Source of the DNA: Leucoraja erinacea
Lineage: Eukaryota
Direction: 5' to 3'
Length of the DNA stretch: 64,000 bases
Assembly: GCF_028641065.1 (NCBI RefSeq)
Contig: NC_073400.1
Coordinates: 19,282,001 to 19,346,000, forward strand
Each line of letters opens with the position of its first letter. Position 1 is the stretch's first letter. This document shows, in pieces, positions 39,926-64,000 of this stretch. Under the pieces are notes generated by a model. The model did no database searches. It was not told the DNA's origin and was given only the letters and a program-made list of their open reading frames with translations. Both the position numbers and the translations under genes were made by a program.

Positions 39926-40048
39926 TATATGTTGGGACACTATTGACCCCAATTTGACACTATTTTGGGAGTGAATTACAGGGTGGGATGGACATGAAAA
40001 GTTTACCTTCATTTTCCTTTTTCCTCTTCCTTTCTGTTTCACCTCCAG

Positions 40049-40164
40049 GTTTCTGAGATTGGTTTGGAAAGTGAATTGCTTCCAATCACTTACAATGATG
40101 CTGCAACCAAGAATAGATATCTCTTCGTTGGCGGCAAGCTTTGCAAATTGCCTACTAGTATCAG
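40049..40164 (+). CDS. PPOX: PPOX coding exon 3
   Basis: 116 nt; VSEIGLESELLPITYNDAATKNRYLFVGGKLCKLPTS. Confidence 0.94.
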
Positions 40165-40537
40165 GTAGATGGCCATCGCGATGATCAGCCTTTGGTTCAC
40201 AGTCGCCTACTGCATGGTCGCTCGACCCACCATTGCTCCATCAACCCATCTCGGCCCAGTGCTCCCACCTGTGGTCTGACCCAGGGACACTGATCTCTAC
40301 ACTATCCATTTGTCCTCAAATTCCAGAATGCAACTGATGGGGATTCATGGGGGGGGGGGGGGGGGGGGGGGGAGGGAGGGTCAGAGGTCAGAGGTTGGGG
40401 GTGGTCGAGCGGAGGGTGGGGGGGGGGAGGCTGGGACTGGCTGGGATGGATTTGGTCCTGTGGTAATATCTGGCCACAGTTGGGCTCCCATGGACAGCCT
40501 CGGTGTTGACAGTTTCTTGCCCATCTTCCTTGTGCAG

Positions 40538-40671
40538 GAGTGTGTTCAGCAAGTTACCTCCGTTCTCCCAGCCCCTGGCCTGGAGCCTGGCCCGGGAACC
40601 CCATCCTGCCACGGAGCAAGGAGGAGGACGAGAGTGTGCACGCATTCTTCCCCCACAGGTTCGGGGCCGAG
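40538..40671 (+). CDS. PPOX: PPOX coding exon 4 (apparent +1 frameshift and GG donor as assembled)
   Basis: SVFSKLPPFSQPLAWSLARE, then after the C-run at 40599-40602 in the +1 frame ILPRSKEEDESVHAFFPHRFGAE; donor reads gggaga. Confidence 0.85.
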
Positions 40672-41280
40672 GGGAGAGTCCTCGGAGGAGTAGGGCAGCG
40701 TGTATCCACTGCCAGCAGCCCCCACACCAAGGCCCACTCCCCATCCCCCAGCCCCCCCCCCCCTCACCCCCCCCGACCCCCGCTCCCCCACTCCCCGCTC
40801 CCCCCCACACCGCCCGCTCCCCAGACCCCGCTCCCAGCCATTCTCCCCCATCCCCAACATTCCCCGCCAAGCCCCCTACTCTCTGCACCCCCCTTCCCAC
40901 CACACTACCCTTGCCCCCACCCTGCTCCGCCCCCCTTAGCTCCTACCTCCCAGCCCCCAACTCTGCCCCCCTCACCATACTGCCCTCACCAACACCACTG
41001 TACCTCTCCCAGCCCCCACCTCCCAGCCCTCCCTCATCAGGTGCACCACTCCCCACTGGCCCCCCGTACACTCCGTCCCCCTCCTCCACTGCCCCCCCCC
41101 CCCCCCACATTGCCCGAGCCCCCAACTTGCTGACCCCATTCCTCCAACCCCCATCTCCCAGCCACCTGCCCAACAGCACCATCACTGCCCACTGTTCCGC
41201 CCTGTCCTTTCTCCCCCCCCCCCCCCCCCCCCCACACACACTGCCTTCCACCCCCGTTGCTGACGCTGGCTCTCCCACAG

Positions 41281-41429
41281 GTGGCGGACTATGCGGCGGA
41301 CAGCCTGTGCCGAGGGATCTTTGCTGGTGACAGCCGGAAGCTCAGTGTCCGCTCCTGCTTCCCCCCACTCTTCAAGGCAGAGAGGAGCTGGGGCTCCGTG
41401 CTGCTCGGCATGTTTGGTTGGATCAGGGG
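41281..41429 (+). CDS. PPOX: PPOX coding exon 5 (one base too long for the next exon's phase)
   Basis: [34 protein letters not shown]; 149 nt to gtgagt, whereas 148 would keep frame. Confidence 0.9.
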
Positions 41430-41947
41430 GTGAGTGAGGCCCCCTTCTTCTCTCCGCCCCCCTCCCCCTCGCTGCCTTGCATGTCTCGCCCCCTCTCCGC
41501 CCTTCCCCATCAGCTGCCCGTGCACCCCCCCCATCACATCGCCCCTCCCTACCCCCCCTCTATGTCTTGCCCTGCCTCCCTCCTTTGCCCCCCCCCCCCC
41601 CCATCCCACTCCTCCCTCTCCCTCCTCCTTCCTTCGCTCCCTTCCTCCTCCCTCTCTCCTCCTGGCCTGGCTCCCCTCCTCCCTCCTTCCTTCATCTACC
41701 TCCCTCTCCCCCCCCCCGCCCTACCCTCCCCCCTCCTTCCATCTACATCCCCCTACCTCCCCCTCACCCCCCCCCCCCACCCCCCCCTACCCATCCTCCC
41801 TCTTTCGCCCAGCCCCCCCCTCCTTTGCTCTGCCCCCTTCTTTCCCTCCTTCCTTCACCCGGTCCTCCTCCCACCCTCCCTCCCTCCCTCGCTCTCCCGT
41901 CCCCTCACGCCTCCTGCAACACGAACCTGTGGCCACTGTCTGTGCAG

Positions 41948-42141
41948 CTGTGAAGTGGGACGGAGCAAAGACGGAGGTGATGGAGCGTGCGCGGCGCGAG
42001 GGCTGGGCACAGTGGAGCCTGCGCCGGGGGATGCAGAGCCTGCCCGAGGCCATGGAGGCTGCCTTACGGGCGAAGGGGGTGGAGATCCACCTGCACACCC
42101 CCGTCACCGAATTACGACCCGCTGCCGATGGAGGCTGCCAG
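41948..42141 (+). CDS. PPOX: PPOX coding exon 6
   Basis: ARREGWAQWSLRRGMQSLPEAMEAALRAKGVEIHLHTPV. Confidence 0.93.
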
Positions 42142-42177
42142 GTGGGTGACGTGGAGAGCCGGGTGTTTCATTGGCGG

Positions 42178-43460
42178 ATGTACCCGTCACATCATGTACC
42201 CGTCACATCATGTACCCGTCACATCATGTACCCGTCACATCATGTACCCGTCACATCATGTACCCGTCACATCATGTACCCGTCACATCATGTACCCGTC
42301 ACATCATGTACCCGTCACATCATGTACCCGTCACATCATGTACCCGCCACATCATGTACCCTCACATCATGTACCCGTCACACAACAGTCACATCATGTA
42401 CCCCGCCACATCATGTACCCGCCACATCATGTACCCGCCACATCATGTACCCGCCACATCCCATGTACCCGCCACATCATGTACCCGTCACATCATGTAC
42501 CCAGCACATCATGTACCCGCCACATCATGTACCCAGCACATCATGTACCCGCCACATCATGTACCCGCCACATCATGTACCCCAGCACATCATGTACCCG
42601 TCACATCATGTACCCGTCACACAACAGTCCATCATGTACCCGCCCATCATGTACCCCTTCCATCATGTACCCGCCACACCATGTACCCGCCACATCATGT
42701 ACCCAGCACATCATGTACCCAGCCTCATGTACCCAGCACATCATGTACCCGTCACATCATGTACCCGTCACATCATGTACCCGTCCCATCATGTACCCGC
42801 CACATCATGTACCCGCCACATCATGTACCCGTCACATCATGTACCCGTCACATCATGTACCCGCCACATCATGTACCCGCCACATCATGTACCCGCCACA
42901 TCATGTACCCGCCACATCATGTACCCGTCACATCATGTACCCGTCACATCATGTACCCGCCACATCATGTACCCGTCACATCATGTACCCATCACACAAC
43001 AGTCACATCATGTACCCGCCACATCATGTACCCGCCACATCATGTACCCGCCACATCATGTACCCGCCACATCATGTACCCGTCACATCATGTACCCGTC
43101 ACTCATGTACCCAGCACATCATGTACCCGTCACATCATGTACCCAGCCATCATGTACCCGCCACATCATGTACCCGCCACATCATGTACCCGACATCATG
43201 TACCCAGCACATCATGTACCCACATCATGTACCCGCCACATCATGTACCCAGCACATCATGTACCCGTCACATCATGTACCCGTCACATCATGTACCCGC
43301 CACATCATGTACCCGTCACATCATGTACCCGCCACACCATGTACCCGCCACATCATGTACCCAGCCACATCATGTACCCAGCACATCATGTACCCGCCAC
43401 ATCATGTACCCACCACATCATGTACCCGCCGCACAACAGTCACATCATGTACCCGTCACA
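42178..43460. repeat. 16-bp minisatellite (atgtacccgYcacatc), about 80 copies, in a PPOX intron
   Basis: Direct inspection; explains long stop-free ORFs in all three forward frames. Confidence 0.97.
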
Positions 43461-44298
43461 CAACAATAACAGGCCAGTAAACACAAATCACATACATAAA
43501 TATATAATAATTATAATACAACACATTAACTGTCATATTAGGTAACCAAAGACACAGTCCGTCGAAGATTAAAATAGGCACAAAATGCTGGAGTAACTCA
43601 GCGGGTCAGGCAGCATTCTGGAGAAAAGGAATAGATCGAGATCCTTCTTCAGACTGATGATGAAATGTCACCTATTCCTTTTCTCCAGAGACGCTGCCTA
43701 ACCTATTACTCCAGTATTTTGCGTCTATCTTCAGTGTAAAGCGGCATTTGTAGTTCCTTCTTATATAGAAGATTCATGTTGCTCAGGTTCGTGTTGTGCA
43801 GTGTTCAAGAGCCGGGATGAAGCGGTTCTTGTACCTGGTGGATGGGGTTTTCAGTCTCCTGTACCTTCGTCCTGACGGTCGTAACAAAACGATTCGGTGC
43901 CCAGGGTGGTGTGGGTCTTTGATATTGGCTGCCGCTTGTGTAGATGCCCTTGATGGTGGGGTGGTCAGTAGCTGCGTTGTGCCGGGCGGTGTCCACCATT
44001 CTTTCCTGACCAGTTACTGTCCCTTGTTGCTGGGTGTCTGTTTTACATATCACCCCCAAACTCTTGGATTAGAGCCTGTTCTGTAACCCACTGCTGAGTA
44101 TCTGTTATTCTGTACACAAGCCCCAACCCTGGGTGGGGTGACGGCCTGTAGCCCACTCCCAAGTACGTGTTAATCTGTGTATAAACCCTGACCCCTTGGG
44201 TGAGGTGTCAGCCTGTAAGCCACCCCCAGGGGTCTGTGTATTAGCCCCGATCCTGGGTGAGGTCTCAGCTCTGTCTGATCGGTTTGTGTCTTTGGCAG

Positions 44299-44359
44299 GT
44301 GCTGACAGAGGGAGGGATCCTGGCAGCGGACCACGTTTTCTCTGCACTTCCTGCTGGAG
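44299..44359 (+). CDS. PPOX: PPOX coding exon 7
   Basis: 61 nt; VLTEGGILAADHVFSALPAG. Confidence 0.93.
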
Positions 44360-44454
44360 GTAGGTAGAGTGGTGCAGTGGCGTCTGGCCCCAATCACTGT
44401 GTGTGCCGCCCCTGACCTCTGCTCTCCTCACTCCCCCCCCTCCCCCCCTTGCAG

Positions 44455-44573
44455 TGCTGGGCCCGCTGCTGCCCCCTGCCTGGCGACCGCTGGCACAGGC
44501 CCTGGGCAAGATCGGCAGCGTCTCTGTGGCCGTGGTGAACCTGGAGTACGAGGGACGAGTGCTGCCTGTCACG
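44455..44573 (+). CDS. PPOX: PPOX coding exon 8
   Basis: 119 nt; PLAQALGKIGSVSVAVVNLEYEGRVLPV. Confidence 0.95.
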
Positions 44574-44980
44574 GTGAGCAAACCACCCCCTTCTACACTC
44601 CTCGTTCCATTCTAGCCCACCCCTCCCTCGTTCCCTCCCGCTCCACACCCCCTGGTGACCACTCCACCCTCCTTGCTGGCCCCTTCCACACTCCTCGTGC
44701 CCCACCCAACCGTCCCAATCTCACCCTCGCTCCCACTCCACACAGCACCCCTCCCCGCCCCACTCTCTTCCCCCTCGCTCTCCTTTCCCCACCTTCACCC
44801 CATCTCACTCTCCCCATCCTCTCTCTCTCCCCCCACACTCCTCTCTCTCTCTCTCCCCATCACCCTTCCCCTCCCCGCTCTCACTTTCCCCTCCCCCTCT
44901 CTCCCCCCCCCCCCTCTCACTCTCCCCCCTCCCTCAGTGCCAGTCGTCTAATTCTCCCTCTCTACCGCCCCACCCCACAG

Positions 44981-45094
44981 GGTTTCGGACACCTGATTCC
45001 GTCGGGTGAGTGTGGGGAGATTCTGGGTGTTGTCTACGACTCCTGCAGCACCCCCCAGCATGACCGATCGGGATCACCGACCACCAGACTGACG
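44981..45094 (+). CDS. PPOX: PPOX coding exon 9
   Basis: 114 nt; GFGHLIPSGECGEILGVVYDS...RLT. Confidence 0.95.
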
Positions 45095-47208
45095 GTACGC
45101 ATCCCTGCCGGGTGGGTGGGGACATCAGTGGGCACACTGTCAGGTTCCCCTCTGGATGGGTGAAGTCGTGGGCACTGGGACAGATACCCTCATGGATGAG
45201 GGTGGGTGCATCAATGGGCACTCTGGTTAGATATCCACCAGATGACGGTGGACCAGTGGGCACCGTGCCAGATACCCCACTGGGTGGGTGTGTGTATATC
45301 AGTGTGCACTGACACAGATACATGACTGGGTGGGTGAATATCAGTGGGCACCATGTCAGATACACCACTGGGTGAGGCTATCGGTGGACACTGGGACAGA
45401 TACCCCTCTGGGTGAAGGTGGACCAGTGGATACCCATGTTGTGCTCAGGCCGACCCCAGATTGGGTCCCTATGGCAACAATGGAGGCCATTCATGCTATC
45501 GTTATCCCAACAATGGAGGCCATTCATTGCATCCTGTCTATCCTGCTCTTCCACTCTGTGCCCTGACTACAAGGCCATTGCACAATTTCCTTGTAATTCA
45601 CCCCTCCCCTCACAGATCACCATCAGCTGCTGCCAGATCCTCCCAGAAATGAAAAAAAAACAAAACGTGTGAGGCAAAATGATAGAAGAGTTGTGAATTG
45701 GAAAGCCAGAGGAAGGAATGTTGGGGTTGAGGAGAGGAGGGGGAGGGGGGGGGGGGGGGGGAGGGAGAAGAAAAAGGGTCTGCGTGAGAAGGGGTGGAGG
45801 GGAGTGTTACCTAAAACTTGAGAATTCTGTTCATACCATTACGTACAACCCGGTGAGTTGTGTTGGGTGTCCACACTGGGGTCTCTTCTACACTGGAGGT
45901 ACCGGACACAGGTTGTTGTGGACCGCACGATGGACCGACTGTGCTCAGTCCACAGGGACTGTCACCTCTCACTCTCCAGCCCCCACCAATCTCATCACAC
46001 TGTCTGCCTTGCTGCCCTCTCCCAGCGTATGCTTGAGTACCACCCTAGTCACTGACTTGCTGAGTACAGACACAGATCCTTCGGCCCACCATGTCCCTGC
46101 TGACCATCACGTGCCCATCTATGCACATCCCATCTCCCAACAATGTTCTTCAGCCACCTCTATTTTAGCAATTTAAGTGGTTATCTGGGGACTTTTGTGA
46201 GTCCTTGGCTCGACCACCTCTTCACACTCCAAGCATTGTTTGGCAGAAAATAAATCCTCAGATCCTCAAAACCTCACCTTGAAGCTGTGGTTTCGGACAT
46301 CTCTGAAATGAGATGTTTCCTGCTCTCACCCCTGCTCTGCCTCTCATAATTGCCAGCCTCTTATAATTCCCAGGTCCTGACAGAGGGCACAGGCCCTGGG
46401 CACGACCCTCGCCCCTCTCGGAGGAAGGACATGCAATACTCCAACTGCAGCCTAACCAATGTTATACACTCTTCCACTCTGCGCCCCACAACTACCGAAG
46501 GCCAGCATCCCCCTTCTCCACATGTGCTGTTATTTTCAGGGTTCCTTGGCTTTGTACTCCGAGGTTCCTTTGTTTAGGAAGGAACTGCAGATGCTTGTTT
46601 ACACCAGATAGACACAAAATGCTGGAGTAACTGAGTAGGTCTTAGCCCAAAACGACACCCATTCCTTCTATCCAGAGAAGGATCCTTTGTTCCTCCACAC
46701 CACCTGGAATCCCACCCTCCTACTTTCATCAGACTTCCCAACGTGCGTCGCCCAAGCATGGCGGGATTAAATTCTATCTGCTTGCCCAATTTACCAGCCG
46801 GCCAATCTCATTCTGAAGCTGCCTTGCTGTTAACAACACCACCAATTTTCCTGGCATCTGTAAACTTAATCTCCTGATTTGACTAACTGCAGCCCTCGGA
46901 ACTCGCTATTGAATTCTGATAACGAGCCTTTCCAGTTTGTGCCTCTTGCCCCAGCATGGTTTCCTCCTCTCTCCCCTGCTCACCTTACAGTTTTCATTCA
47001 CCTCTAAGTTTTATGCCAGAGACCAGCACCAGAGCATGTCATTCAATCCTGGCCCCGGCATCATGTTTGGCATAGTGGTGCTGAGAGCCCTGTTCCTGTG
47101 CTGTACTGCCCTGTGTGTCCTACTGGGACAGTTTTTTTCCGTAGATGGGGTCAGTGAGAGATCAGTTGCCGTGGGTTTCCTCTCCCTGACTGGCTCCAAT
47201 CTCGGCAG

Positions 47209-47358
47209 GTCATGATGGGTGGATCGTGGTTCACTGGTGCATTCGGAGACCCACAGAGAGTGTCAAAGGAGCACCTGCTGGAACGAGCCAAGGAGGCAGT
47301 GCAGGAACAACTGGGAATCGCAGGACAGCCACTGACAGCCATCGTCAAAGTGCACAAG
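47209..47358 (+). CDS. PPOX: PPOX coding exon 10
   Basis: 150 nt; VMMGGSWF...AKEAVQEQLGI...VHK. Confidence 0.95.
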
Positions 47359-47524
47359 GTGAGAGGGGGCGGCAGCTCGGCAAAATACGGGGGGGGGGCA
47401 CGGGTCAGACAGCGCAGAGCTCCCTCTACACTGTCCTGTCACATGCTCCCAAGGCACGGATCAGACACAGAGTGAAGCTCACCCCGTTTTTATCTCTAAC
47501 TATTCCCATGTTTTTGGCACACAG

Positions 47525-47567
47525 GATTGTATCCCACAGTATGGAGTCGGACACTGGAAACTCCTGG
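47525..47567 (+). CDS. PPOX: PPOX coding exon 11
   Basis: 43 nt; DCIPQYGVGHWKLL. Confidence 0.94.
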
Positions 47568-48616
47568 GTAAGTGTGTTGAGCTACTCGCAGTGTGTCCAG
47601 GTCTGCCTGTGTCAGCGCCGCACCAGCCCCATGCCCTTGACCTGCCCCCCGCTAACCCCTCAGTGTGACCAGGTCTACTTGAGTCGGCACCACTCCATCG
47701 CACACACTCGACCCCGACCCTCACCGCCAGCCACCAGGCATGACCAGGCACAGAGAAGGACAAATGTGGCATTAAACGTCGTTGATGGATGCACCTTTGT
47801 TGGAGGCACTGTCGTGGCATTGCCCGGGCATGGCCTCCCACGCTGTGCCCACCTACCATCTCTCTGCTCCACAAGCAGCAGACATCACATAGTACTCAAC
47901 ACTGGCAGAATGGCACCCAATCCCCATCTGCCACCAGCCCTCACCGCCCCTCTTCTCCTGCATGAAACTACACCTCTGTCACATCTGGCTGTTCCCCCTC
48001 CTGAACCCCCCCCCCCCCCCCCCCCCCCAGCCTCTGTAACCCCCTCCAGTGGAAAACCTCCCTCCCTGTCTCTATAATCTGTGATGCCAACTTCCCTCCG
48101 TCTCCATATGCCCCCCTTTCTATAACCTTGCTACCCTATACCCACCCCATTGTCTAACTCCCTACTATACCTATACCCCTCCCTGTCTCTGTAACCCCCT
48201 CTGCCCCATACAGCCCCCCCTCCTCCAGCCAGTCTGCCTTCCACCAACTCTGTACCTCTTCACACACCGGCATCATTCCCTATCTCTGCAACGCCCCACA
48301 GCGGTCTGTCTCTGCAGCCACATCCGACCCCTACATCCCTCCTTCCCTCTGTAACAACTTCTGGCCCATACACTCCACCCTCTCTCTGTAACCCAAACCC
48401 CAACGCTGAACCCACCGAACTCTAGTGTCCTGCGACTCTCTGGTAGCTGCGATCTTGCTAGGTCAACACTGGTGACACCCAATCAACCCTGCGGCACTGA
48501 CTAACTACATGTTATCTCTCCCCACACCTCCCTCTTCACCCCTCCCTCTTGCTCTCTACCCTCCCCTCCATCTCTCCTCCCTCCCTCTTGCTCTCTCCTT
48601 CCCCCCCACCCCACAG

Positions 48617-48744
48617 CAGACATCTCCAAGTGGACAGCCAGCCACCGTGTACCGCTGACGCTGCTCGGTGCGTCCTACGACGGCGTGTCGGTCAACGACT
48701 GCATCTACCAGGCCCAGCGCGGGGTGGAGCGGCTGCAGGGGTGA
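48617..48744 (+). CDS. PPOX: PPOX last coding exon
   Basis: HRVPLTLLGASYDGVSVNDCIYQAQR...TGA; NAGNAG acceptor. Confidence 0.95.
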
Positions 48745-50081: not shown

Positions 50082-50520
50082 TTTTAGAAATACAAATATT
50101 TTTATTCAGTATAAAACAAAAACAAATATTTACAAAAGGGCAACACGATCAAAACCGCCGTTGTGGCAGTTCACCAAACAACGGTTATCAATTTTAAAAT
50201 AATGTCATCCTCAACAGTAATACACTCGGGCCTCTCGCGGCGACCGGCGTCCACAGGAGGCGGCCATAGTCCCCGTGGACACCGCGTCTTCCCTCTCCAG
50301 GGACACGCGAGCCCATAGGCCGGGAAAAGGGACAAGTCGCCGACCCCGGTGTGGCCGGAACAGCGAATGGCCATCTTGGCCAGGCCCAGCTTCCCCCTCC
50401 CCCCTCTGTACCGGGTGCCCAAATATCAGGAGCGTGGGGCTAAAATGTAGCCAAAACCTAAGGAACAGCCCCTTTAGATATTCGAAAAGTGGCTGCAACT
50501 TCTCACACTCCATGTACTAA
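50082..50520 (-). mobile_element. Tx1/L1-clade LINE 3' end
   Basis: ECEKLQPLFEYLKGL..HFSPTLLIFGHP and LGLAKMAI motifs, then AATAAA and an A-rich end. Confidence 0.7.
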
Positions 50521-50949
50521 CCAGCCCTGGGAGAGTTTGCGTGATGGTGCCCTGCTCTCTCGCCGTGTCCTTCACTACAGAGAGAGCTCCGTTGCAAACG
50601 AGCCCACCGCGCTGGGCAACCACTGTTGTGTGTGGCGAGGGTCCTTGCCGCGGTTACACCAGGCAGTCCCCGTGGTGAGGTAGCGAGGTGAAGCTTGCCC
50701 AGACCAGCGCCACCCCATTCACAATCTCTGCATGTGGCCGGCTGGGTCTACCGCTGGATTATGGGAGTCACTGCCTACTGTCAGGCTGTAGAGGGGCCGA
50801 ACGGCCGTCACCTAGCCCAGTAGTTGCAAGAGAGAGGGTGCACGGCTTCCTCTTTCCGCGGAACAGTCTCCGGGGCCGAATGGCCTTGCGCGGCCAATCA
50901 GTGATAGTGTCTCCAGTTACCGGACTGGCCCGGGTGATGAGCCGGCGCT

Positions 50950-51104
50950 TCATGCGGATGGCCCTCGCTCCAGGCACAGCTCGCACGCCCGCTCCCCCAA
51001 ACAGCACCGCCCTGGCAGTAAGGCCAGCAACACGAGCAACAGCAGCAGCACGGCGCTGAGGACCACGCCGATGCGTCGGTGCGGAGAGCAGTGGGCCGGG
51101 GAAC
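50950..51104 (-). CDS. B7-family Ig gene exon 4 (transmembrane helix and short Cys-rich tail)
   Basis: ttgcag acceptor; SPAHCSPHRRIGVVLSAVLLLLLVLLALLPGRCCLGERACELCLERGPSA*. Confidence 0.8.
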
Positions 51105-51292
51105 CTGCAACACAGGGGACTAGTCACACACAGATCGTGCAAACTCCGCATAGGCAGCACCAGCAGTGAAGATCGAAGCCGAGTTCAGAGCGGGTAACGG
51201 GAGGGAGGCGTGGCAGGAATACAGAGAGGGATGAGTGGCGGGGAGCAGCGGTGCGGAGCTGCCTCGTGTGGTACGGGCTGAGGTGGTATTAC

Positions 51293-51634
51293 CGTCGTTG
51301 TTTGAGCAGCGGCCCGGCATGGAGACGCTGCCCTCGCTCCTCCCGGCGGGGCACGTGGCGCGGCTGCTCTCGGACCGGTTGCTACCGGGAAGGCCGAGCA
51401 CACACCGCAGGGCGGGCGCCTGGCTCACCGCCACGTCCAGCCAGCTCCGGAGCCCGAAGGTCCCATCCGTAGCCGGCATCGTCTTCGAACCCGAGGCCCC
51501 GGGCCCGTACGCGCTGCCGTTGTCCCAGCGCCAGCTCAGCTTGGAGGAAGGGTAGCCGCCTGTCGCCAGGCATATCAGCCTCACCACGGAATCCGGCTTG
51601 GCTTGACAGCTCACCCGAGGGACGCTGAAAGGAG
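51293..51634 (-). CDS. B7-family Ig gene exon 3 (IgC domain and stalk)
   Basis: APFSVPRV...LICLATGGYPSSKLSW...DGTFGLRSWL...LRCVL; ccccag acceptor, G|gtaat phase-1 donor. Confidence 0.85.
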
Positions 51635-51685
51635 CTGGGGAAAGAAGCCACAGGAGGGATTACTTTCAGTTCAACCACCATGGCA

Positions 51686-52839
51686 GGCTGCTCTGGAAGG
51701 TTAGATCGCATGGGATTCAATGAGAGGCAGCTGAACGGATAGAAAATTGGCTTCGTGGAACGAAGCAGAGGGTGATGGTGGAAGGTTGCTTCTCGGACTG
51801 GCGGTCTGTGATTAATGGTGTGCCTCAGGATTCGATGCTGGGCCTGTTACTGTTTGTCAACTACATCAATGATTCGGTTGAGAACATACACGGCAAGATT
51901 AGCAAGTTTGCAGGTGATACAAAAGTGGGTGGTTTTGCAGATAGTGAAGATGGTTGTGAAAACTTGCAGCAGCATCTTGATCGATTGGCCAGGTGAGCTG
52001 AGGAATGGTTGATATAATTTAATGCAAAGGAATGTGAGGTTTGGCATTTTGGGAAGTCTAACATAGGCAGGACATACACAGTGAATGTTAGGGCTCTGGG
52101 GAGTGTTGTAGAGCAGAGGGATCGAGTAGTGCAGGTACATGACTCCTTGAAAGTGGAGTCACGGGTAGATCGGGTGGTCAAAATGACTTTTGGCACATAG
52201 GCCTCCATCAGCCAGAATATTGAGAATGGAAGTTGGGAGGTCATGTTGCAGTTGTAGAAGGCATTGGTGAGGCCGCTTCTAGAGTATTGTGTTCAATTCT
52301 GGGCACCGTGTTCTGCGAAAGATGTTGTCAAGTTGGAAAGGGTACAGAGAAGATTTTCGAGGATGTTACCAGGACTAGTGGGTCTGAGCTATAGGCAGAG
52401 GTCAAGTAGGCTGGGACTCTTCCTTGTAGTGCAGGAAGATGAGGGGTGATCGTATGGAGGCGTATACAATCATGGGAGAAATAGATCGGGTAGATGCACA
52501 GAATCTCTTACCCAGAGCAGGTGAATCGAGGACCAGAGGGTCTAGGTTTAAGGTAAAGGGGAAAATATTTAATAGGAATCTGAAGGGTAACATTTTCCAC
52601 ACAGTGGATGGTGGATATAAGGAACAATCTGCCAGAGGAAGTAGTTGAGGCAGGGACTATCCCAAAATTTAAGAAACAGTTAGACAGGTAGATTGATTGG
52701 ATATGTTTGGAGTGATATGGACCGAATGTGGGCAGGTGGGACTAGTGTCGCTGGGACATGTTGGCTGGTGTGGGCAAGTTGGGCTGAAGGGCATGTTTCC
52801 ACACAGTGTCACTCTATGACACCGCTGTGACTGCAAAGC

Positions 52840-52883
<44 letters not shown>

Positions 52884-55800
52884 CTCTAGTGCTCGTGAGG
52901 GTAAGGGCAGAAATATTGGGGAGATTAATATGTGGCCAAGGAGTTGGTGCCGGGGGCTGGGATACCAATTTCTAGACCATTGGGAATTCGAATGGGGAAG
53001 GGGTGGCCTGTACAAGAGGAATGAGTTGCACCTGAACTGGAGGAGAACCACTATCCTGGCAGGCAGGTTTGCTAATGCTACATCGTGGGTTAAACTAGAT
53101 TGGCATAGAATTAGGATTGTATACAAGACCAAGGCAGGTGAGAGGTTAGAAGTTGATATGGAGATTGATGAGAGACATTATAGAGGACAGAATAGGCAAG
53201 AGAAAGGCAGGGAGTGATTAGATTAGATTAGATTTTATTGTCATTGCACTTTTCAGTGCAATAAAATGATTTTGCCTGCAGTCATAACATAGAATAAATA
53301 ACAAAACAAACACTCAACATAGTTTAAAGTCCAGAAGTCATTGTCTCTTCGCTCCTTGCTCTCCCTCTGCGCTGAGGCAATCCAGGCCTCCGATGTTATG
53401 ACTCCGCCGGGTGATGGTAAGCAAGCCCTGCGGCTGAATGCCAGCTCCGCGAACGGGCCGGTTCAAAGTCCGCGATGAAGGAAAGTTGGTTTCAACTGCA
53501 CATATTATAATGCAAGAGGCGTGACAGGTAAGGGAGATGAGTTTAGATAATTAGAGAGCTCGGAAAAAATGCTGAAAAGCAGGACCTCCAGGGTGGTTAT
53601 CTCCAGTTTGCTTCCAGTTCCTCGTGCTGGCGAGAGCAGGAACTGAATGCGTGGCTGAGGAACTGGTGCAGGGGGCAGGGATTTAGATTCTTAGACCACT
53701 GGGATCTGTTTGGAGTAAGGGGGAACTGTACAAAAGGGACGGATTGCACCTTAACAGGTGGGGGACCAGTATTCTGGCAGGCAGGTTTGCCACTGCTACA
53801 TGGTGGTTTTAAACTAAATAAGGGGGGGGGGGGGGGGGGGAGTTAAATGGGATAGTCAAGGACGGAGTTAAAGGGAAAGAGAGTAAAGGGATAGTTAATG
53901 ACCCAAGAATTAATGGGAAAGAAAGCTCACAAAGGGATAGGAGAGTATGGACAAGTGTAATAGGGATCGATGTGAAAGGTGAGATGCGTAAGGAATTAAA
54001 ATTATTGTATATGAATGCGCGAAGTATAAGAAGTAAGGTAGATGAGCTTGAGGCTCAGTTAGAGGTTGGTAGATATGACATTGTGGAGATTACTGAGACG
54101 TGGCTGCAGGAGGATCGGGCCTGGGAACTTAATATTCAGGGTAATACATCCTATAGAAAGGAAAGGCAGGTGGGCAGAGGAGGGGGGGGGGGTGTAACTC
54201 TGCTGGTGAGGGATGGCATTCAGTCCCATGCGAAGGAAGACAATAGGGACTGGCGAGGTAGAGTCACTGGATTGAGTTGAGGAACTGTAAAGGCATGAAG
54301 ACTTTGGTGTTATCTATAGACCCCCCAAATAATAGCACAGATGTAGGGTGTATGTTGCAGCAGGAGTTAAAACTGGTATGTAACAAAGGTAATGCCACTG
54401 TAGTGATGGAGGATTTCAATATGCAGGTAGACTGGGAAAATCAGGTTGGTTCAGGACCCCAAGAAAGAGAGTTTGTAGAATGCCTCCAAGATGGATTCTT
54501 AGAGCAGCTTGTAATGGAGCCGACCAGAGAAAAGGTAATTCTGGATTTACTGTTGTCTAAAGAACCAGATTTGATAAGAGAACTCGAGGTTATCCCACTT
54601 TTCAAGAAAAGAGCAAGAGAGAAAACGGGGAATTACAGACCAGTTATCCTGACTTCGGTGGTGGGAAAGATGCTGGAGTCAATTATTAAAGAGGTAATAA
54701 TGGGGCATTTGGATAGCAGTAAAAGGATTAGTCCAAGTCAACATGGATTTATGAAAGGGAAATCATGCTTGACTAATCTTCTGGAATTTTTTGAGGACAT
54801 GACAAGTAAGATGGATGAAGGGGAGCCAGTGGATGTAGTGTATCTATACTTTCAGAAAGCCTTTGATAAGGTCCCGCACGGGAGACTTCTGACTAAAATT
54901 AAAGCACATGGTATTGAGGGTAGGGTGTTGACATGGATAGAAAATTGGTTGGCAGGCCAGAAGCAAAGAGTAGGAGTGAACAGGTCCTTTTCAGAATGGT
55001 AGGCAGTGGTGAGTGGAGTGCCACAAGGCTCGGTGTTGGGGCCGCAAATGTTTACTAAACATATTAATGATTTGGAAGAGGGAATTAGGAGCAACACTAG
55101 CAAGTTTGTGGATGACACAAAGTTGGGTGGCAGTGTGAACTGTGAAGAGGATGTTAGGAGGTTGCAGGGTGACCTGGACAGGTTGAGTGAGTGGGCAGAT
55201 ACGTGGCAGATGCAGTATAATATAGATAAATGTGAGATTATACACATTGGAGGCAACAACAAGGGGGCATATTATCATCTCAATAGGTAAGGTGGAAGTG
55301 CAGCGAGACCTGGGTGTCCTTGTACACCAGTCACTGAAAGTTGGCGTGCAGATACAGCAGGCAGTGAAGAAAGCTAATGGAATGTTGGACTTCATTACAA
55401 GAGGATTTCAGTATAGGAGTAAAGAGGTTCTTCTGCAGTTGTGTGGGGCTCTGGTAAATACCACATCTGGAGTATTGTGTACAGTTTTGGACCAATTTGA
55501 GGAAGGACACCCTTTTGATTTAGGCAGTGCAGTGTAGGTTCAGGAGATTGATCCCTGGGATGGCAGAACTGTCATATGAGGAAAGATTGAAAAATGGGGA
55601 ATCGTATAGAAACATATACATTTATAAAAGGACTGGACAAGCTGGATGCAAGGGAAATGTTCCCAATGTTGGGCGAGTCCAGAACCAAGACAGGAGGCCT
55701 TTTAAGACTGAGGTGAGAAAAAACGTTTTTCACCCAGAGAGTTGTGAATTTGTGGAATTCCCTGCCACAGAGGGCAGTGGAGGCCAAATCACTGGGTGGA

Positions 55801-57170
55801 TTTAAGAGAGAGTTAGATGGAGCTCTAGGGGCTAGTGGAATCAAGGGGTATGGGGAGAAGCAGGCACAGGTTATTGATTGGGGACGATTAGCCATGATCA
55901 CAATGAATGGCGGTGCTGGGTTGAAGGGCCGAATGGCCTCCTCCTGCACCTACATTCTATGTTTCTATAAGTACTTATGGCGGGGACATTGTAGCCATTA
56001 TGGAGACTTAGTTAAGAGAGGGGCAGGACAGGCAGCTCAATATTCCAGGGTTCAGGAGAGACGGGGGTAAAAGAGGAGAGGAAGTTGCATTATGAGTTTA
56101 GGAGGATGTCACGGCAGCGGTCAGAGGTGACATTATAGACGGGTTGCCCAGTGAGGCTATATGGGTGGAGCTGAGGAACAAGAAAGGGATGATCACCTTG
56201 TCAGGGGTGTACTACAGACCCCTGAACCGTCAACGGGAATTAGAAGTACGAATATGCCAGGAGATTGCAGACAGTTGCAGGTCAAATAAGGTTGCCATAG
56301 TGGGGGATTTTAACTTTCCTAATGTTGACTGGTAATATCACAGTGCAAACGATGTAGACAGGTAGAATTTGTCAAATGTGTTCAGGAGGAATTCCTCCAG
56401 AAATATGTAGAGGGCACCACATGGGAGAGGGCAACACTTGATCTAGTCTTATGAAATTGGGAGGGGCAAGTGGATGAATTGTTTGTGGATGTGCCTTTTG
56501 GGACCAATAACCGCTGTTCGATTAGGTTCCATGGGATTCAAGGAGAGATAGCTGAATGGATAGAAAATTGGCTTCATGGAAGGAAGCAGAGGGTGATCAT
56601 GGAAGGTTGCTTCTCGGACTGGCGGCCTGTGACTAGTGGTGTTACTCAGGTTTTGATGCAGGACCCATTGCTATTTGTCATCTACATCAATGATCTGGAC
56701 GAGAACGTACATGGTGGCATGGTTAACAAATTCGCAGATGACACACAAAGGGGTGATATTGTAGATAGTGAAGATGGTTGTCAAAAATTGCAGCAGGATG
56801 GCCGAGGAATGGTTGATGCAGCATTAACATGGGCAGGAGCTACACAGAGGATAGGATAGACTTAGAGCAGGGGTTCCCAACCTTTTCCGTCCCGTTTACC
56901 CCTGGCAACTTTAATAGCACATGACAATATTATTTCACTTATTTATGGACAACTAATGATGAACAGATACCGGTATACCGGAACCAAACACAGTCAGTCA
57001 ATGAGAAATGTACTCCCTGAGGGTAAATTTACCCCAGGTTGGGAACCCTTGATTTAGAGGGATACGGGCCAAACGCAGGCACGTGGACTACTGTAGATGG
57101 GACATGTTGGTCAGTGTGGGTAATTTGGGCCGAAGGGCTTGTTTCCATATTGCAAGACTCTATGACTCAC
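51686..57170 (+). mobile_element. Cluster of several CR1 LINE copies filling intron 2 of the B7-like gene
   Basis: ORF1 esterase, endonuclease (YMNARSI, ITETW), RT (NYRPV, SQHGF, FQKAFDKVPH, GVPQGSVLGP, KFVDDTK) and 3' tails, with stops and deletions. Confidence 0.92.
56868..57051. mobile_element. hAT (Charlie-like) MITE inserted in a CR1 tail
   Basis: TIRs CAGGGGTTCCCAACCT...AGGTTGGGAACCCTTG; 8-bp TSD ACTTAGAG/ATTTAGAG. Confidence 0.85.
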
Positions 57171-57543
57171 AGCCCCCCCCCCCCCCCCCCCCCCCCCCTC
57201 AACAACCAACTCTGACCAACTTCCCACCACCACCCTTAAGAATCCCTGATCTATCCCTCCTCCCCCTCTACCTCCCGTTCTGCTGGCCCCCCCCCCCCCC
57301 CCCCCCCGGCACCCCTACCATTACCCCCTCTTTACTGCACCCCACCACTTGCTCTCCCCCATATCTGGCAACTCAATCTCTGCCACTCTCGCTCAGGCCA
57401 CTTTCTGCCCCGGCTCCCCCCCTCCCCCCCCCCCCCTCACTCGCTGTCCTCTCATTCAGTCACCTCTCACCCTCTAACTTCCCACTCTTTATTTTTCTCC
57501 CCACTCCCTCTCCCCCACCTCCCCCATCCTCCCTGCCACCCAC

Positions 57544-57930
57544 CTGTAACGGTGAACTGAGTGTCGATCTCGGTTTTCCAGTCCCGGGTGCGCACTATGC
57601 ACCGGTATGTGCCCTCATCCTGAACCGTGACGTTGTGCAGGCGGAGAGACGCGTCCCCCAGGTCGAGCAGCGTCTCGTTGATGGTCGCCCTTCCCATGAA
57701 GCGGGCGTCCTGGTACTGGGGTTGACTCGCCCCGTCGTAGTAGCTGTAGACCACCAGGGTCTTGGCGGGGTTCCGCAGGCTCCACTCCACGCCCAGGTCG
57801 GAAGCCCGGGGCCGGTTGAAGTGGCAGGTCAGCGTGGAGGACTGGCCCAGCTGCGCCGGGGCAGGGCTCAAGGTCAGGGCATAGGTCAAAGTCAAGACTA
57901 GAGTCAGGACCGGAGTCAGGGGCAGGGTCT
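57544..57930 (-). CDS. B7-family Ig gene exon 2 (hydrophobic leader end and IgV domain)
   Basis: LTCHF...VEW...YQDARFMGRAT...GDASLRLHNVTVQDEGTYRC, the B7/butyrophilin-type IgV signature; phase 1/1. Confidence 0.92.
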
Positions 57931-58182
57931 CTGCAAACGGAGACACATTGTGACTGGCATCGTCCACGGGCTGAACAGACCGAATATCCCAGCCCTCCAT
58001 ATCATATCCCACACCCGGGATCACAATGTCACACTCACTCACACACTCACAACCCCAACCCCCACCCTCACCACCTTCTTCAACCCCACGCCCCCCCCCC
58101 CCCCCATCGCTACCACTCTCGCTACCACTCTCCCTCATCCCCCCCCCCCCCCCCCCCACGTGGCGCCTGTGACCCGCGTTAC

Positions 58183-58234
58183 CTGCGCGCACCAGGAACT
58201 GCGCTGCCCCGCTGCCTCTCCGTCCGTCCAGCAT
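58183..58234 (-). CDS. B7-family Ig gene exon 1 (leader start)
   Basis: ATG, MLDGRRGSGAAQFLVRA, CAG|gtaacg phase-1 donor matching the phase of the next exon. Confidence 0.7.
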
Positions 58235-59073: not shown

Positions 59074-59166
59074 TCAGTCCTCCAAGTTATGGAACGCGTT
59101 TTGCATTTCTTCCAGCAGCAGCGCGTAGTCTGCCTTAATCTTCGCCTCCCCGTCTCTGATGGGGTC
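59074..59166 (-). CDS. ATP6V1A: V-ATPase subunit A-like last exon
   Basis: [30 protein letters not shown]. Confidence 0.95.
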
Positions 59167-59455
59167 CTGGGGGAGGGAGGGGAGGGGGGGCAGTGGCAAT
59201 TAGCAACACTTTCTTAAACCTCTTTGCTGCACCGCCCCCCCCCGCCCTTTGTCACACCTCATTCGCTCTCCTCCCGCTCCCTCTCTCCCTCCACATTTTC
59301 CCTCCCCCTATCCACCCCCCCCACCTCTTTAATCCTCTCTCTCCGTCTCACCGACCCTTTCTTCCCAGCCTCCCTCCCTCCTCCCAATATCTCGCACTCC
59401 CTCCCTCCCTTTCTCCACCCACCCTACCACCACGCCCCACCCTAGGGTCGCTGAC

Positions 59456-59627
59456 CTTGAACTTCATGGCACTCAGCTTGTAGAGGACGTCGCCCAGGTT
59501 GTCTCGGATAATGGCCCAGGTGAGGCGGTTATCAGAGTGAGCCGTGGTCTCCACCGAGTGTCGCGCCAAGTCGTAGAAGGCGATGATGTTCTGCAGGATC
59601 CCCACCGTCTTGTAGAAGGGACAGTAC
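59456..59627 (-). CDS. ATP6V1A: V-ATPase subunit A-like penultimate exon
   Basis: 172 nt; [26 protein letters not shown]...KLSAMKFK. Confidence 0.95.
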
Positions 59628-61349
59628 CTGCAGTCAAGGCGTGGAAACAGGCCCTTTCAGTCTACATTGGTCCCATCTGACTGGGTTTGGCCCATATTCG
59701 TCTCAGTTCGTCAAGTCAAGAGAGTTCAAATTCAAGTCAAGTCTCGTGTCCCAGATAGGACAATTCTTGCTTTGCTTCAGCACAACAGAATATAGTAGGT
59801 ATGAATATAGAACAGATCAGTGTGTCCATATACCATTATATAAATATATACACCCAGCTCAGGTGTGGTTGGATGATTCAGTTGCCCGATAACTGGGACG
59901 AAACTGTCCCTGAATCTGGGCGTGCGCGTTTTCACACATCTATACTTTTTGCCTGATGGGAGAGGGGAGAGGAGGGAGTGGCCAGGTTGCGACTCATCCT
60001 TGATTATGCAGCTGGCCTTGCCGAGGCAATGTGAGGTATAAATGGAGTCAGTGGAAGGGAGGTAAGTTTGTTTGGTGGCTGCGTCCACAATTTTCTGCAA
60101 TGTCTTGTGATCTTGAATGGTATCAATGTACCTGTCCAAATGGTTGTTAAATGTTGTGATAGATAGTACCTGACTCAAACACCTCCCTCGGCAGCTAGTT
60201 CCACCCTTTGTGGAAAGAAAAGTTGCCCATCAGGATCCTATTCAATATTTCGCCTTTCACCTCTCACCTTAAACCTGTGTCCTCTGGTTCTCAATTCCAC
60301 TACTCGGGAGACCTGATTTGGAGGCCAAACCACTGGATTTATGGAGGCCAAATCACTGGAGAGATTTATGGAGGCCAAATCACTGGAGGGCTTTAAGAGA
60401 GAGTTAGATAGAGCTCCATTTGGGCTAGTGGAGTCAAGGGATATGGGGAGTAGGGAGGCACGGGTTATTGACAGGGAACGAACAGACATGATCACAATGA
60501 ATGGCGGTGCTGTCTCGAAGGGCCCAATGGCCTCCTCCTGCACCTATGTTCTATGTTTCTATGTTACTCTGGTCAAAAGACTGCATTTAACGCATCTATT
60601 CCTCTCATGATCTTATAAACCTCTGTAAGATCACCGCTCATCCTCCTGCGTTCCAAGGAATAAAGTATAGCCTGCTCAACCTCTCCCTGCAGCTCAGGCG
60701 TGGCCTCGCTGATGCAAGAAAGAATTTCATTGTTCCATTGTCTGTAAATATTACAATCAAACATTCGTGGTTCTGTATTTTGAAATTTCCACCCTGGGAA
60801 AATTGTCCAGGCTGTCTACCCGATCTTCATGGGGGTAACATACAGAGGTGCAAGGAAAGCAGAGCGGCTTGGGAATATGTGTTGAGCCACAGAGAGAACA
60901 TGCAGCTTCACATGGTCACAACATCACACAGATTGAAGCTGCAGCAAGGCCAGCTGCTTGCCCGCTGTTTGCTCCGAATGTTAACTCCGCGTCTCCCTTC
61001 ACTGATGTCCTCAAACCTACTGTGGTTGAGGACATTTCCCATTCCATCTCCCATTTCCAGCAGACTTTCGTTTTATACAATGAAAAAATCCTGAGCGGTC
61101 GCCTGGAACAGCCCAGAGAGAGGGGCAGAGCAACCTCCTCCTATCGCTCTGCCCACCCCAGCCCCTCTCCCCTTGCATCCCCCAACCTGAACCTCTCCCT
61201 CCTCACCCCGAATCCCCCCACCTCTCTCCGAATCTCCCCCCCCCCCCCCGCCTGAATCCCACACCCCCTCTCTCCCCTGTAATCCCCCACCCTGAATCTC
61301 TCCGTCCTTCTCTCACCCCGAATCCCTTCCCCTCTCACCCCACCCTCAC

Positions 61350-61444
61350 CTGTCGTAGGGGGCGTGTCCGTTCTGCTGCAGGAAGTCGTCCTTCAGCAGT
61401 TTGGCCACTTCCAGCGTGATCTTGTCCAGCTCGGCCAGCGATGC
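61350..61444 (-). CDS. ATP6V1A: V-ATPase subunit A-like exon
   Basis: 95 nt; [32 protein letters not shown]. Confidence 0.95.
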
Positions 61445-61900
61445 CTGTGGAATGGGACACACACACACACTCGCAATGGGCCATGGAGAGAGTGCAGGGG
61501 TCGCGGGTGGAGACTCAGAGAGAGTGGATGGGCCACTGGGAGAGTGGAGGGGCCCTCGGGGAGAGTGGAGGGGCCACGGGCAGACTAAGGGACAGGGCGC
61601 GGGGAGAATGGGGGGTGCGGGTCTTCGGACTAGTGGAGCCACGACTGGAGTATCGTTAATCTGTCCGGTCGCCAGACTAGGGGCAATGTGGGAGTACACT
61701 GGAAGGGGGGGGGGGGGAGAGGGGGTGCAGAGGAGATCCACCAGTGCAGGTGTAGCGTCTGGCCAGAGGCATGGCCTGTGTTTCCCTCCACGGACGGTGC
61801 CTGACCCACAGGCTCCTCTCCTCCCATCCTTGGCCCCAGATCCCAGTATCCGCACTCTCCCCCGTCTCCAGGGACGGAGCGCGACAGTTACACACTGACA

Positions 61901-61958
<58 letters not shown>

Positions 61959-62709
61959 GCGGTGTTCCTGAGCTGATGCAGCTGAACACATGATGGGGAC
62001 AGAGTGGCAGTCTTTCACCCATGCTGGGGTGTTATGGAAGCTTAGGTACAAGAGTAGGTCTTTCGGCCCTTCGAGCCAGCACCGCCATTCAATATGATCA
62101 TGGTTGACCATCGAAAATCAGTACCCCGTTTCCTGCTATTCCCCCATATCATTTGATTCCGTCGAGGATTACAGCGAAGGTTCATGAAGGGGTGGAGTGT
62201 GCAGAGGGGTTTGAAGGGAACTTGATTTCCTCTTCCCGCAGTGACCACGGAGTGGAGCCAAAGAGTCTCACAAACACCAATCGTGAAGGCAGAGAAGGTT
62301 ATAGAACAAGTACCGGTGAACGGGATCGGTGGAGATGGGACTGCATGTGGGCCGAAAGGCCTCGTTCTCGGTTGAATGACTCCACACCACACACGCACAC
62401 AATGTACAGACATACTCAAACATACACAGACACATAAACAGACCCCCACACACACAGACACACAAACTAACACAAACAGACATATACAAATATGAAGGTA
62501 CACAAAAAAGCTGGAGAAACTCAGCGGGTACAGCAGCATCTATGGAGCGAAGGAAATAGGCAACGTTTCGGCCCGAAACGTTGCCTATTTCCTTCGCTCC
62601 ATAGATGCTGCTGCACCCGCTGAGTTTCTCCAGCTTTTTTGTGTACCTTCGACTTTCCAGCATCTGCAGTGCCTTCTTATACAAATATGAACACATTGTG
62701 CGGCCTCAC

Positions 62710-62913
62710 CTTGCCCACCAGCTGCACGATCTCGGCCAGGTCCTCCTCCTCCTGCAGGATCTCCTTGGTGCGGGTGCGGAGCGCGACAAAGTCGGGGAAG
62801 TGCCTGTCGTAGTAATCGTCGAGCAGGCGCGCGTACTTGCTGTAGCTCACCAGCCAGTTGACTGAGGGGAAGTGTTTGCGCTGGGCCAGCTTCTTGTCCA
62901 GTCCCCAGAACAC
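62710..62913 (-). CDS. ATP6V1A: V-ATPase catalytic subunit A-like, internal exon; gene continues right of the window
   Basis: 204 nt; [20 protein letters not shown]...[19 protein letters not shown]; probably a paralog rather than the ortholog. Confidence 0.95.
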
Positions 62914-64000
62914 CTGGAGCAGGACGGGGCGGCGAGAGGTGAGCCAGGGAAATAGAGACGCTCCCTCGCCGCCCCTCCCACAACGCGGCGCTCCCTCACC
63001 GCCCCTCCCATAGCGCGGCGCTCCCTCACCGCCCCTCCCACAATGGGGGGGATCTGCCCCAGGCTGTCAGCGGTGGAGTTATTTTCCATGGGCGGCTACG
63101 GAGCAACCGGTTGAAGCTTCATGTTTCACAATCCGTCCCAGTTTCGGCGCCTGGGGGCTGTGTGAATCTGATCTCGGCGAGAGCAGACAGTGCAGACAGG
63201 GTATTATGACGGGAGAGCGATAGGGAGTGTAACTGCAGCTCAGATTGCCAGCCGCTGGGGACAGGCCCGTCAGTGGTGGAGCAGCCGGAGGTGGCGGTGA
63301 ATAAGACCAGGATTACCCACACAAGGGGGCTTTGAGAGACTGAGGTGGGCTGGGAATGGGATTACTGGGAAAGGGCGGCGTGTCGGGGCAGGAGGTGGTC
63401 ACAAAGATCGTGGGGGTGGGGGGGGGGGGGGGAGTGGAAGGATCAGGAGGGACTTACAGCGAAAGGGAGGGAATGAGTGAGAGGGTTACTGAGAAAGGGG
63501 GAGATGTGGGGACAGGAGGAGGTTACAAAGAAGGGGAGACATAGGCGGAGTTGGAGGGTTCAAGCTGCTGTTTGGTCAATGATTTGGTGACCCCTGAGAT
63601 TGGTGTTGGGTCCATAGTCCATCACTCAACCACCCTCAACCCTCCCTCCCTCCACCACCCCCAACCCGCACTCCCTCCACATACCCTTTCTCCACTACCC
63701 TACGCCCTCCCCCCTGCACGCTCCCTGCCTCCACCACTGCTGCAGTGTGCATGCACCATCACCATGTATGTACACATGCCCTATGGTTGCCCACCCAGGC
63801 TACTGCGACAGACCCTGATCACACCCCCCCTCTAACCCCCACACCCACCACCTGTAAATTCCCCCACCGTCCCGACCGGGCACCATCAACGGCACCCGCC
63901 TGCAGGATGGGAGCTCCGTCACCGGTTGCGTGGGTCAGCTACGCCCTATCCCACCGGGCAATGAGGAGCGGGGCGCGATCAATGCCACTGCGCCAGGCCA

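Follow-up and report, generated by a model that had tools for sequence, protein, structure and literature searches.

A conserved B7-type ligand gene beside an ATP6V1A-like gene in the skate Leucoraja erinacea, possibly an ancient and still unnamed member of the B7 family

Does the gene lying between PPOX and an ATP6V1A-like gene in the skate Leucoraja erinacea belong to one of the named B7 families, or does it represent a lineage of its own? We considered this question in a stretch of 64,000 nucleotides (NCBI RefSeq assembly GCF_028641065.1, contig NC_073400.1, positions 19,282,001 to 19,346,000 of the forward strand; hereafter the window), in which a first reading, made from the sequence only, had placed an uncharacterised B7 gene. 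This is a real, spliced and conserved B7-type ligand gene, at least as old as the elasmobranchs. As judged by sequence comparison, it is distinct from CD276, and the units that we sampled do not single out its nearest named relative. With modest confidence, we favour the reading that one old B7 ligand lineage without a name of its own is represented by this single gene, apart from CD276, from PD-L1 and from the butyrophilins.

The four coding exons (Table 1) join through three introns, all GT-AG and all in phase 1, into a coding sequence of 936 nt with a single terminal stop, so that the type I membrane protein of about 311 residues proposed by the sequence-only reading is recovered exactly, at 311 residues. 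One exon per immunoglobulin (Ig) domain and phase-1 introns are the arrangement of B7 family genes. The product shows 0 differences from RefSeq XP_055510639.1 (L. erinacea "CD276 antigen-like") and the gene is therefore already annotated; "uncharacterised" is right as regards experiment and not as regards RefSeq, which already models and names it. No description of the gene was found in the full-text literature searched, to which subscription fish-B7 papers and bioRxiv supplements, which could already describe it, did not belong; five accessions were absent from one supplement file of PMC13262535 and six B7 terms from one supplement file of PMC3964593. The lineage is thus apparently new to the literature searched, the gene itself already standing in RefSeq under a CD276-like name.

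Evidence for splicing comes from three Logan proteins (309-311 aa, on contigs of 1,484-2,167 nt) that run through all three junctions, and since these contigs are far shorter than the gene, which spans 7,285 nt, the gene must be spliced; transcription of the junctions, presumed in the sequence-only reading, is borne out in this way. Junction 1 is represented in the protein records P0001, P0004, P0005 and P0006. The model of the Amblyraja protein, XP_032898064 (P0002), begins within sequence matching intron 1 and bypasses exon 1, and its N-terminus is therefore probably mis-annotated.

The same three Logan proteins differ from the skate product by 8, 10 and 15 substitutions, and all seven variable positions of their V domains fall on the CC' loop and on strands C', F and G. 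We regard this clustering as a lead only, as it amounts to about three linked clusters and may reflect species differences. A DNA contig from run X3, which carries another organism label, has nine base differences in exon 3, eight of them non-synonymous (seven residues) and six within 14 bp, and no listed difference in the coding part of exon 4; it is possible that the exon-3 variation represents allelic diversity or fast evolution. Some of the X3 variant letters recur in single RNA reads of runs X9 and X16, and the residues affected in the X3 contig (157-161 and 197-211) are variable in the Logan proteins too. In two Logan variants (P0001 and P0006) a Cys, possibly unpaired, replaces W211 on IgC strand E. 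In the window the donor of intron 3 is weak, with T at +5 (51288); the consensus G stands at this place in the X3 contig and in one read of X9. Run X9 shows about 1x depth inside this intron, whose retention would yield a product without a transmembrane (TM) segment, and an isoform lacking this segment is modelled in Narcine too. On the 3' side, read depth in RNA run X9 stays at 1-3x as far as about 50060 and falls to near 0 at lower positions, and the only polyadenylation signal within 49000-50950 is the AATAAA at 50106-50101.

The protein has the layout of B7 proteins, namely a leader, an IgV domain, an IgC domain, a single TM segment and a short tail in type I orientation. Pfam matches are to V-set (53.5 bits) and to the CD80-like C2-set_2 (24.9 bits), and among nine Pfam families there is no B30.2/SPRY, in agreement with the sequence-only reading. 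The same is true of its four N-glycosylation sequons NET, NVT, NGS and NRS (at N102, N117, N185 and N232). Its leader exists as well, with a signal peptide judged from hydropathy alone, except that the hydrophobic core (residues 20-38) is encoded by exon 2 and not by exon 1; a 12-bp tandem repeat supplies part of this core, and in the alignment the three skates have a longer leader than the rays and sharks. That reading did not mention the extra IgC cysteine pair C156/C241, the stalk cysteines C256/C266 or the juxtamembrane cysteines C294/C295.

An AlphaFold model computed from a 10-sequence alignment (mean predicted local distance difference test score 76) has two Ig domains (V+C), a disordered stalk at 245-270 and a TM helix at 270-289. 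Its top Foldseek matches are BTN1A1, BTN3A1 and BTN2A1, and VIA-align gives tied Z-scores of 17.7-16.2 to PD-L1, ICOS-L, BTN3A and B7-H3. Pfam, AlphaFold, Foldseek and VIA-align thus all support the B7-type architecture and fold proposed at the outset; as modelled, the fold is of B7/BTN type, yet it does not name the subfamily (Z within about 1.5). The positions equivalent to C156 and C241 are hydrophobic residues in CD276, at the end of strand A and in strand G, which makes an A'-G disulfide reasonable; the extra pair most likely closes such a bond, which would stiffen the membrane-proximal domain. Proteins of the CD2/SLAM group have a similar extra membrane-proximal disulfide and were considered for this reason, but membership was dropped, as all top sequence and fold matches are to B7/BTN proteins.

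Cytoplasmic tails in the family range from 3 to 64 residues, the coelacanth protein stopping 3 residues past the TM segment, and a YxxPhi motif is absent from all nine models with a TM segment. In Rhinoraja the tail uses a different frame of the exon 4 found in the window (74% over 34 aa), so the tail sequence appears free to change. A Cys lies in the TM-end window in eight of the nine models and three residues earlier in the ninth. A glycosylphosphatidylinositol anchor, considered because of the basic cluster before the hydrophobic stretch and the 3-residue coelacanth end, is less likely, since most copies have tails of 8-64 residues and a conserved TM-end Cys.

Homologues were collected from 1.84 billion representatives, the best 150 of 3229 hits being considered and named by cluster look-up. 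Among the matches listed, single-unit relatives occur in Amblyraja, Rhinoraja, Pristis, Narcine, Hemitrygon, Mobula, Scyliorhinus torazame, Pristiophorus, Latimeria and Amia, and orthologous-looking proteins, with that of Leucoraja, come from nine elasmobranchs, the coelacanth and the bowfin (11 species). The canonical Ig Cys and Trp and the D-x-G-x-Y-x-C columns are invariant across the family alignment, and C156 and C241 are common to all listed relatives. We cut 86 V+C units from 178 Ig proteins and aligned them with a profile built from the family: both extra cysteines are present in 18 of 18 family records, from all 11 species, against 0 of 68 other units. RefSeq labels for these proteins are inconsistent, the skate, stingray, catshark, coelacanth and bowfin copies being named "CD276" and the copies of five of the 11 species "butyrophilin-like". 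The best non-self BLASTP match of both the coelacanth and the bowfin unit is a family member (127 bits, with CD276 at 115 and 111). The lineage is probably as old as the jawed vertebrates, the coelacanth and bowfin copies being probable members.

We found one gene per species. This speaks against a dispersed lineage-specific expansion, which would have contradicted the sequence-only reading, and tblastn of six family proteins against the window gave no second copy. The further claim that mammals have no orthologue agrees with the best 150 of 3229 hits and with two word-limited searches, in which none surfaced; as negative evidence this is weak. Similarly, a profile search of a large database returned nine proteins and no teleost, amphibian, reptile or mammalian orthologue, an absence that means little in a search that missed six of ten of its own inputs. 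It also brought up three perciform proteins named "CD276 antigen (homolog)" (P0176, P0177 and P0178).

For phylogeny we used 40 of the 86 V+C units, three of them cut by hand, with near-duplicates and isoforms excluded, and a second set of 28 units from which the two extra-Cys columns were removed and on which approximately unbiased (AU) tests were made. In the 40-unit tree the nine elasmobranch proteins group together as a clade (100/99) in which sharks are split from batoids; CD276 forms a separate clade at 96/95 and the butyrophilin-like units another at 93/92 (95/89 in the 28-unit tree). Monkey and carp CD276 are 54% identical and family members are 25-33% identical to either. The AU test accepts the family alone (p=0.40) and rejects both the grouping of the coelacanth protein with mammalian CD276 (p=0.0019) and that of the bowfin protein with fish CD276 (p=1e-6). 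Orthology with CD276 was rejected on these identities, separate clades and tests, in a tree without elasmobranch CD276. Identity with PD-L1 was rejected because the Amblyraja orthologue of the skate gene, XP_032898064, is distinct from the thorny skate PD-L1, XP_032874294 (supplement of PMC12151841); PD-L1 has the same fold (VIA Z 17.7, rmsd 3.2-4.8) and an identity of 19-20%. The idea that the gene is no orthologue of a named B7 gene therefore holds for CD276 and PD-L1 and does not extend to CD80/86, ICOSLG, VTCN1 and HHLA2.

Naming by best hit was also set aside. CD276 is the slowest-evolving B7 protein (PMC13262535, section 10) and heads the whole-protein match lists of unrelated B7 units as well, so that a best hit to it carries little information. 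The perciform "CD276" proteins do not group with CD276; the two included in the tree sit apart on a long branch of their own, with 23-24% identity to true CD276, and on this sequence evidence they constitute another mislabelled B7-like lineage.

Several observations weigh against a separate and ancient lineage. The highest similarity of the family profile to solved structures is to CD276 (135 bits), above BTN1A1 (114), ICOS-L (111), PD-L1 (91) and CD86 (72), CD80 being outside the best 60 matches, and the BLASTP margin of the coelacanth and bowfin units over CD276 is small, 12-16 bits. The node joining these two to the elasmobranch clade has an unstarred support of 89/65 in the 40-unit tree; with the Cys columns removed the family forms an unresolved group with one long-branch fish CD80/86-like unit (79/96), and a sister relationship of the family and CD276 is not rejected (p=0.12). 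Most outgroups are unnamed and carry labels that are our guesses from PDB matches or motifs, and the trees hold no cartilaginous-fish CD276, CD80/86, ICOSL, VTCN1 or HHLA2. The finding of one gene per species rests on insensitive searches and not on genome scans. Two of the 11 models, those of Hemitrygon and Mobula, are without a TM segment. Read mapping of three RNA runs (5-25% of each read) and one contig set on 50000-51720 gave, in the RNA runs, a depth of 0-2x over exons 3 and 4 (none in X13), no listed joint between 51104 and 51293, and mostly repeat reads. None of the runs listed as carrying the gene is recorded as RNA, which speaks neither for nor against its expression. A bioRxiv preprint (10.1101/2021.06.11.448072) mentions a bowfin "CD276-like" gene near runx1 and DONSON, which might be the bowfin family protein and would place the bowfin copy elsewhere. 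The block around the skate gene is a last such point: we assume that human USP21-PPOX-B4GALT3 (1q23.3) has paralogues at 3q13, 21q22 (ICOSLG), 11q23 and 19q13, and our literature search did not confirm it.

Among other explanations, the gene might be a divergent, possibly relocated orthologue or co-orthologue of CD80/86, ICOSLG or VTCN1, working as that ligand, which we consider unlikely. The ESM Atlas clusters nearest to the skate protein are named ICOS ligand (0.96), but clusters of BTN, CD80 and HHLA2 score within 0.01 of these; ICOSLG (B7-H2) shares the V + C1-type ectodomain (VIA Z 17.5, rmsd 2.9, 197 aligned) and presumably belongs to the 3q13/21q22 paralogy group. The best single-domain PDB match of the V exon is VTCN1 (B7-H4; 46.4 bits), and the nearly tailless coelacanth copy resembles VTCN1 in this respect. 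The sampled ICOSL-like (P0115) and VTCN1-like (P0081) units, by contrast, are without the Cys pair and fall outside the family in the trees, although cartilaginous-fish ICOSL was not among them; more generally, the ICOSLG, VTCN1 and HHLA2 references are unnamed look-alikes, none of which groups with it. For CD80/86, the skate IgC matches the CD80-like Pfam C2-set, and a fish unit that matches CD80 best among two-Ig PDB entries (a weak 33.5 bits) stands beside or within the family (88/48 in the 40-unit tree, 79/96 in the 28-unit tree) and has extra IgC cysteines of its own. That single unit is weakly identified, has a long branch, an odd composition and an identity of 17-24%, and its extra cysteines are at other positions; the profile scores of ICOSL, CD86 and CD80 all lie below that of CD276.

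That score, together with CD276 heading the PDB matches both of the C exon and of the bowfin protein (95 bits), raises the somewhat more doubtful possibility of a sister paralogue of CD276, arisen by early or whole-genome duplication, for which the ATP6V1A link would be incidental and a broad expression and mostly inhibitory action like that of B7-H3 would be expected. CD276 has the same V-C-TM layout, and the IgC start is alike in the CD276 and family alignments; the AU test leaves room for sisterhood. Against it, free trees keep the two apart, CD276 has no extra Cys pair, the family differs from it in its Cys-rich stalk and short unconserved tail, and the slow evolution of CD276 and its top rank for unrelated units weaken any naming by best hit. 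The least probable alternative is a butyrophilin-like protein without B30.2 that acts on gamma-delta T cells, or else an adhesion molecule with no part in co-signalling. Foldseek, the RefSeq name in five of 11 species and an AU test in which family plus BTN is only borderline rejected (p=0.053) point that way, and BTN1A1, BTN2A1 and BTN3A share the V-C ectodomain and have profile scores of 100-114 bits; however, the VIA Z-scores show no preference for BTN over PD-L1 or ICOS-L, the butyrophilin-like units keep to their own clade, and a single gene per species was found and not a cluster. The missing cytoplasmic B30.2/PRY-SPRY led us to reject a classical butyrophilin, and some butyrophilin-like proteins lack this domain as well.

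We turn to the neighbourhood with the separate, unnamed B7 lineage as the preferred reading. Both neighbours proposed for the gene, PPOX and the ATP6V1A-like gene, are confirmed, the former being convergent with it and the latter ending (59077) about 840 bp upstream of its ATG; a GT7 galactosyltransferase gene, presumably B4GALT3, is also present. The ubiquitin-specific protease at 10900-13100 we take to be USP21, which would extend a block like human 1q23.3.

Table 1. The B7 gene and its surroundings, in positions of the window
Feature	Position	Strand	Remarks
Exon 1	58183..58234	-	52 nt, ATG to phase-1 donor; residues 1-17, hydrophilic start of leader
Exon 2	57544..57930	-	387 nt; hydrophobic leader core (residues 20-38) and IgV
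IgV hallmarks, exon 2		-	C53, W67, D122-x-G124-x-Y126-x-C128; sequons N102, N117
Tandem repeat	57890..57920	.	12-bp unit, 2.6 copies, inside leader-core coding sequence
Intron 2	51635..57543	-	5.9 kb, mostly decayed LINE fragments (RVT_1 and endonuclease matches, 54262-54999)
Exon 3	51293..51634	-	342 nt; IgC and start of stalk (C256)
IgC hallmarks, exon 3		-	canonical C168, W181, C224; extra pair C156/C241; sequons N185, N232
Exon 4, coding part	50950..51104	-	155 nt; end of stalk (C266), basic cluster, TM, tail, stop codon
TM and tail, exon 4			TM about residues 272-290; Cys-rich tail of 21 aa without Tyr
Probable 3' untranslated region	50101..50949	-	inferred; ends near AATAAA at 50106-50101; distal part is repeat
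ATP6V1A-like, last four coding exons	59077..62922	-	XP_055510641.1; same strand as B7 gene; runs past window
PPOX	37490..48744	+	convergent with B7 gene; limits approximate
GT7 galactosyltransferase, first exons	22738..25557	+	limits approximate
Ubiquitin-specific protease exons	10900-13100	-	no Pfam match on single ORFs

The B7 gene and the ATP6V1A-like gene are on one contig in six of six elasmobranchs for which both records were available, one shark included; Pristis, Hemitrygon, Pristiophorus, Latimeria and Amia, for which the search returned no ATPase record, are outside this count. Accessions are near-consecutive in Leucoraja (055510639/641), Rhinoraja (078276524/523), Narcine (069797263/258) and Scyliorhinus torazame (072354395/394), and the pair lies on a single 850-kb scaffold in Mobula hypostoma and on one chromosome in Amblyraja. 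Being linked in a shark and in batoids, the pair predates the shark-ray split. The ATP6V1A-like protein is a second-type V-ATPase A subunit of sharks and rays, fast-evolving in batoids (skate-shark 83%), whose Leucoraja model is flagged by RefSeq as low quality; our ATPase tree held neither canonical tetrapod nor elasmobranch ATP6V1A and leaves the duplication undated.

The sequence-only reading had taken the ATPase and B7 pair for a co-retained ohnologous segment. Its retention is seen in all six elasmobranchs; that the gene arose as an ohnologue of the 3q13 B7 region is plausible, though not proven. We take the human 3q13 block to hold B4GALT4, ARHGAP31, NR1I2, NECTIN3 and ATP6V1A beside CD80 and CD86, the latter two thus near ATP6V1A and B4GALT4, and B4GALT3/4 would presumably be a second duplicate pair fitting the ohnologue idea, which the literature searched did not confirm. 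A competing paralogy would, we assume, link 1q21-23 with 15q24 (CD276) and 9p24 (PD-L1). If the ohnologue idea is right, a B7 copy would have been retained with a duplicated ATP6V1A on the USP21-B4GALT3-PPOX block, as a whole-genome-duplication paralogue of the CD80/CD86/HHLA2/ICOSLG region formed in the jawed-vertebrate ancestor and lost toward mammals. The available part of PMC10751288 describes a paralogue of the major histocompatibility complex on human chromosome 1 and does not mention the skate gene.

Elsewhere in the window, broken open reading frames (ORFs) lie on the forward strand at 4200-7350 (no Pfam match, six ORFs) between duplicated stretches (about 2050-3000 and 9030-10040), which may be the long terminal repeats of a decayed retroelement. 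A long tandem array at 41980-43540 is inside PPOX, and a 142-base assembly gap occupies 35321-35462.

How might such a protein work? As its tail is unconserved, without a Tyr motif and frameshifted between skates, it is best read as a predicted ligand that signals via its receptor and not as a signalling receptor itself. It would be displayed as a glycosylated type I protein on antigen-presenting or epithelial cells and would present the front (AGFCC') face of its IgV domain to a CD28-family receptor with a single V domain on lymphocytes; the receptor tail, and not the B7-type protein, would generate the signal. The TM-end Cys is a likely palmitoylation site, and the elasmobranch stalk cysteines may form a loop or link dimers. 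ICOS-L binds via its AGFCC' sheet (PMC7545189), and fish Cd80/86 binds Cd28 and Ctla-4 (PMC12092003, whose available text says nothing on cysteines). CD28-family receptors chiefly bind B7 proteins, and one of them, CD28X, is reported from sharks, rays, sterlet, gar, turtles, birds and crocodiles and not in teleosts or mammals (PMC11599192). Because this range is compatible with the known range of the ligand, whose teleost and mammalian absence comes from weak searches, CD28X would be the first candidate partner, a testable guess drawn by analogy of distribution. A bolder proposal, in which the gene stands for a founding B7 lineage of the jawed vertebrates that was later lost, sister by whole-genome duplication to the CD80/CD86-ICOSLG region, with an extra IgC disulfide, CD28X as the receptor with which it was co-lost, and a clustered amino-acid variation due to selection by pathogens on a checkpoint ligand, is improbable when taken whole, standing between the CD276-sister and butyrophilin explanations in our estimate.

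What the gene means for the family follows from its labels and its possible receptors. The RefSeq name "CD276" is applied to a different gene in coelacanth, bowfin and elasmobranchs, which distorts counts of B7-H3 conservation, and the extra Cys pair provides a simple diagnostic for separating this family from CD276. A 2024 survey reported four CD28-family receptors in non-mammalian jawed vertebrates, fish lineages included, that are absent in human, the available part of the survey naming no ligands for them (PMC11599192). Such orphan receptors would be expected to have an old B7 ligand, absent from mammals, as their counterpart, and a direct binding test is possible. If our reading is true, the gene would enlarge the ancestral co-signalling set by one member and would serve as a marker for the spread of B7 genes through genome duplications.

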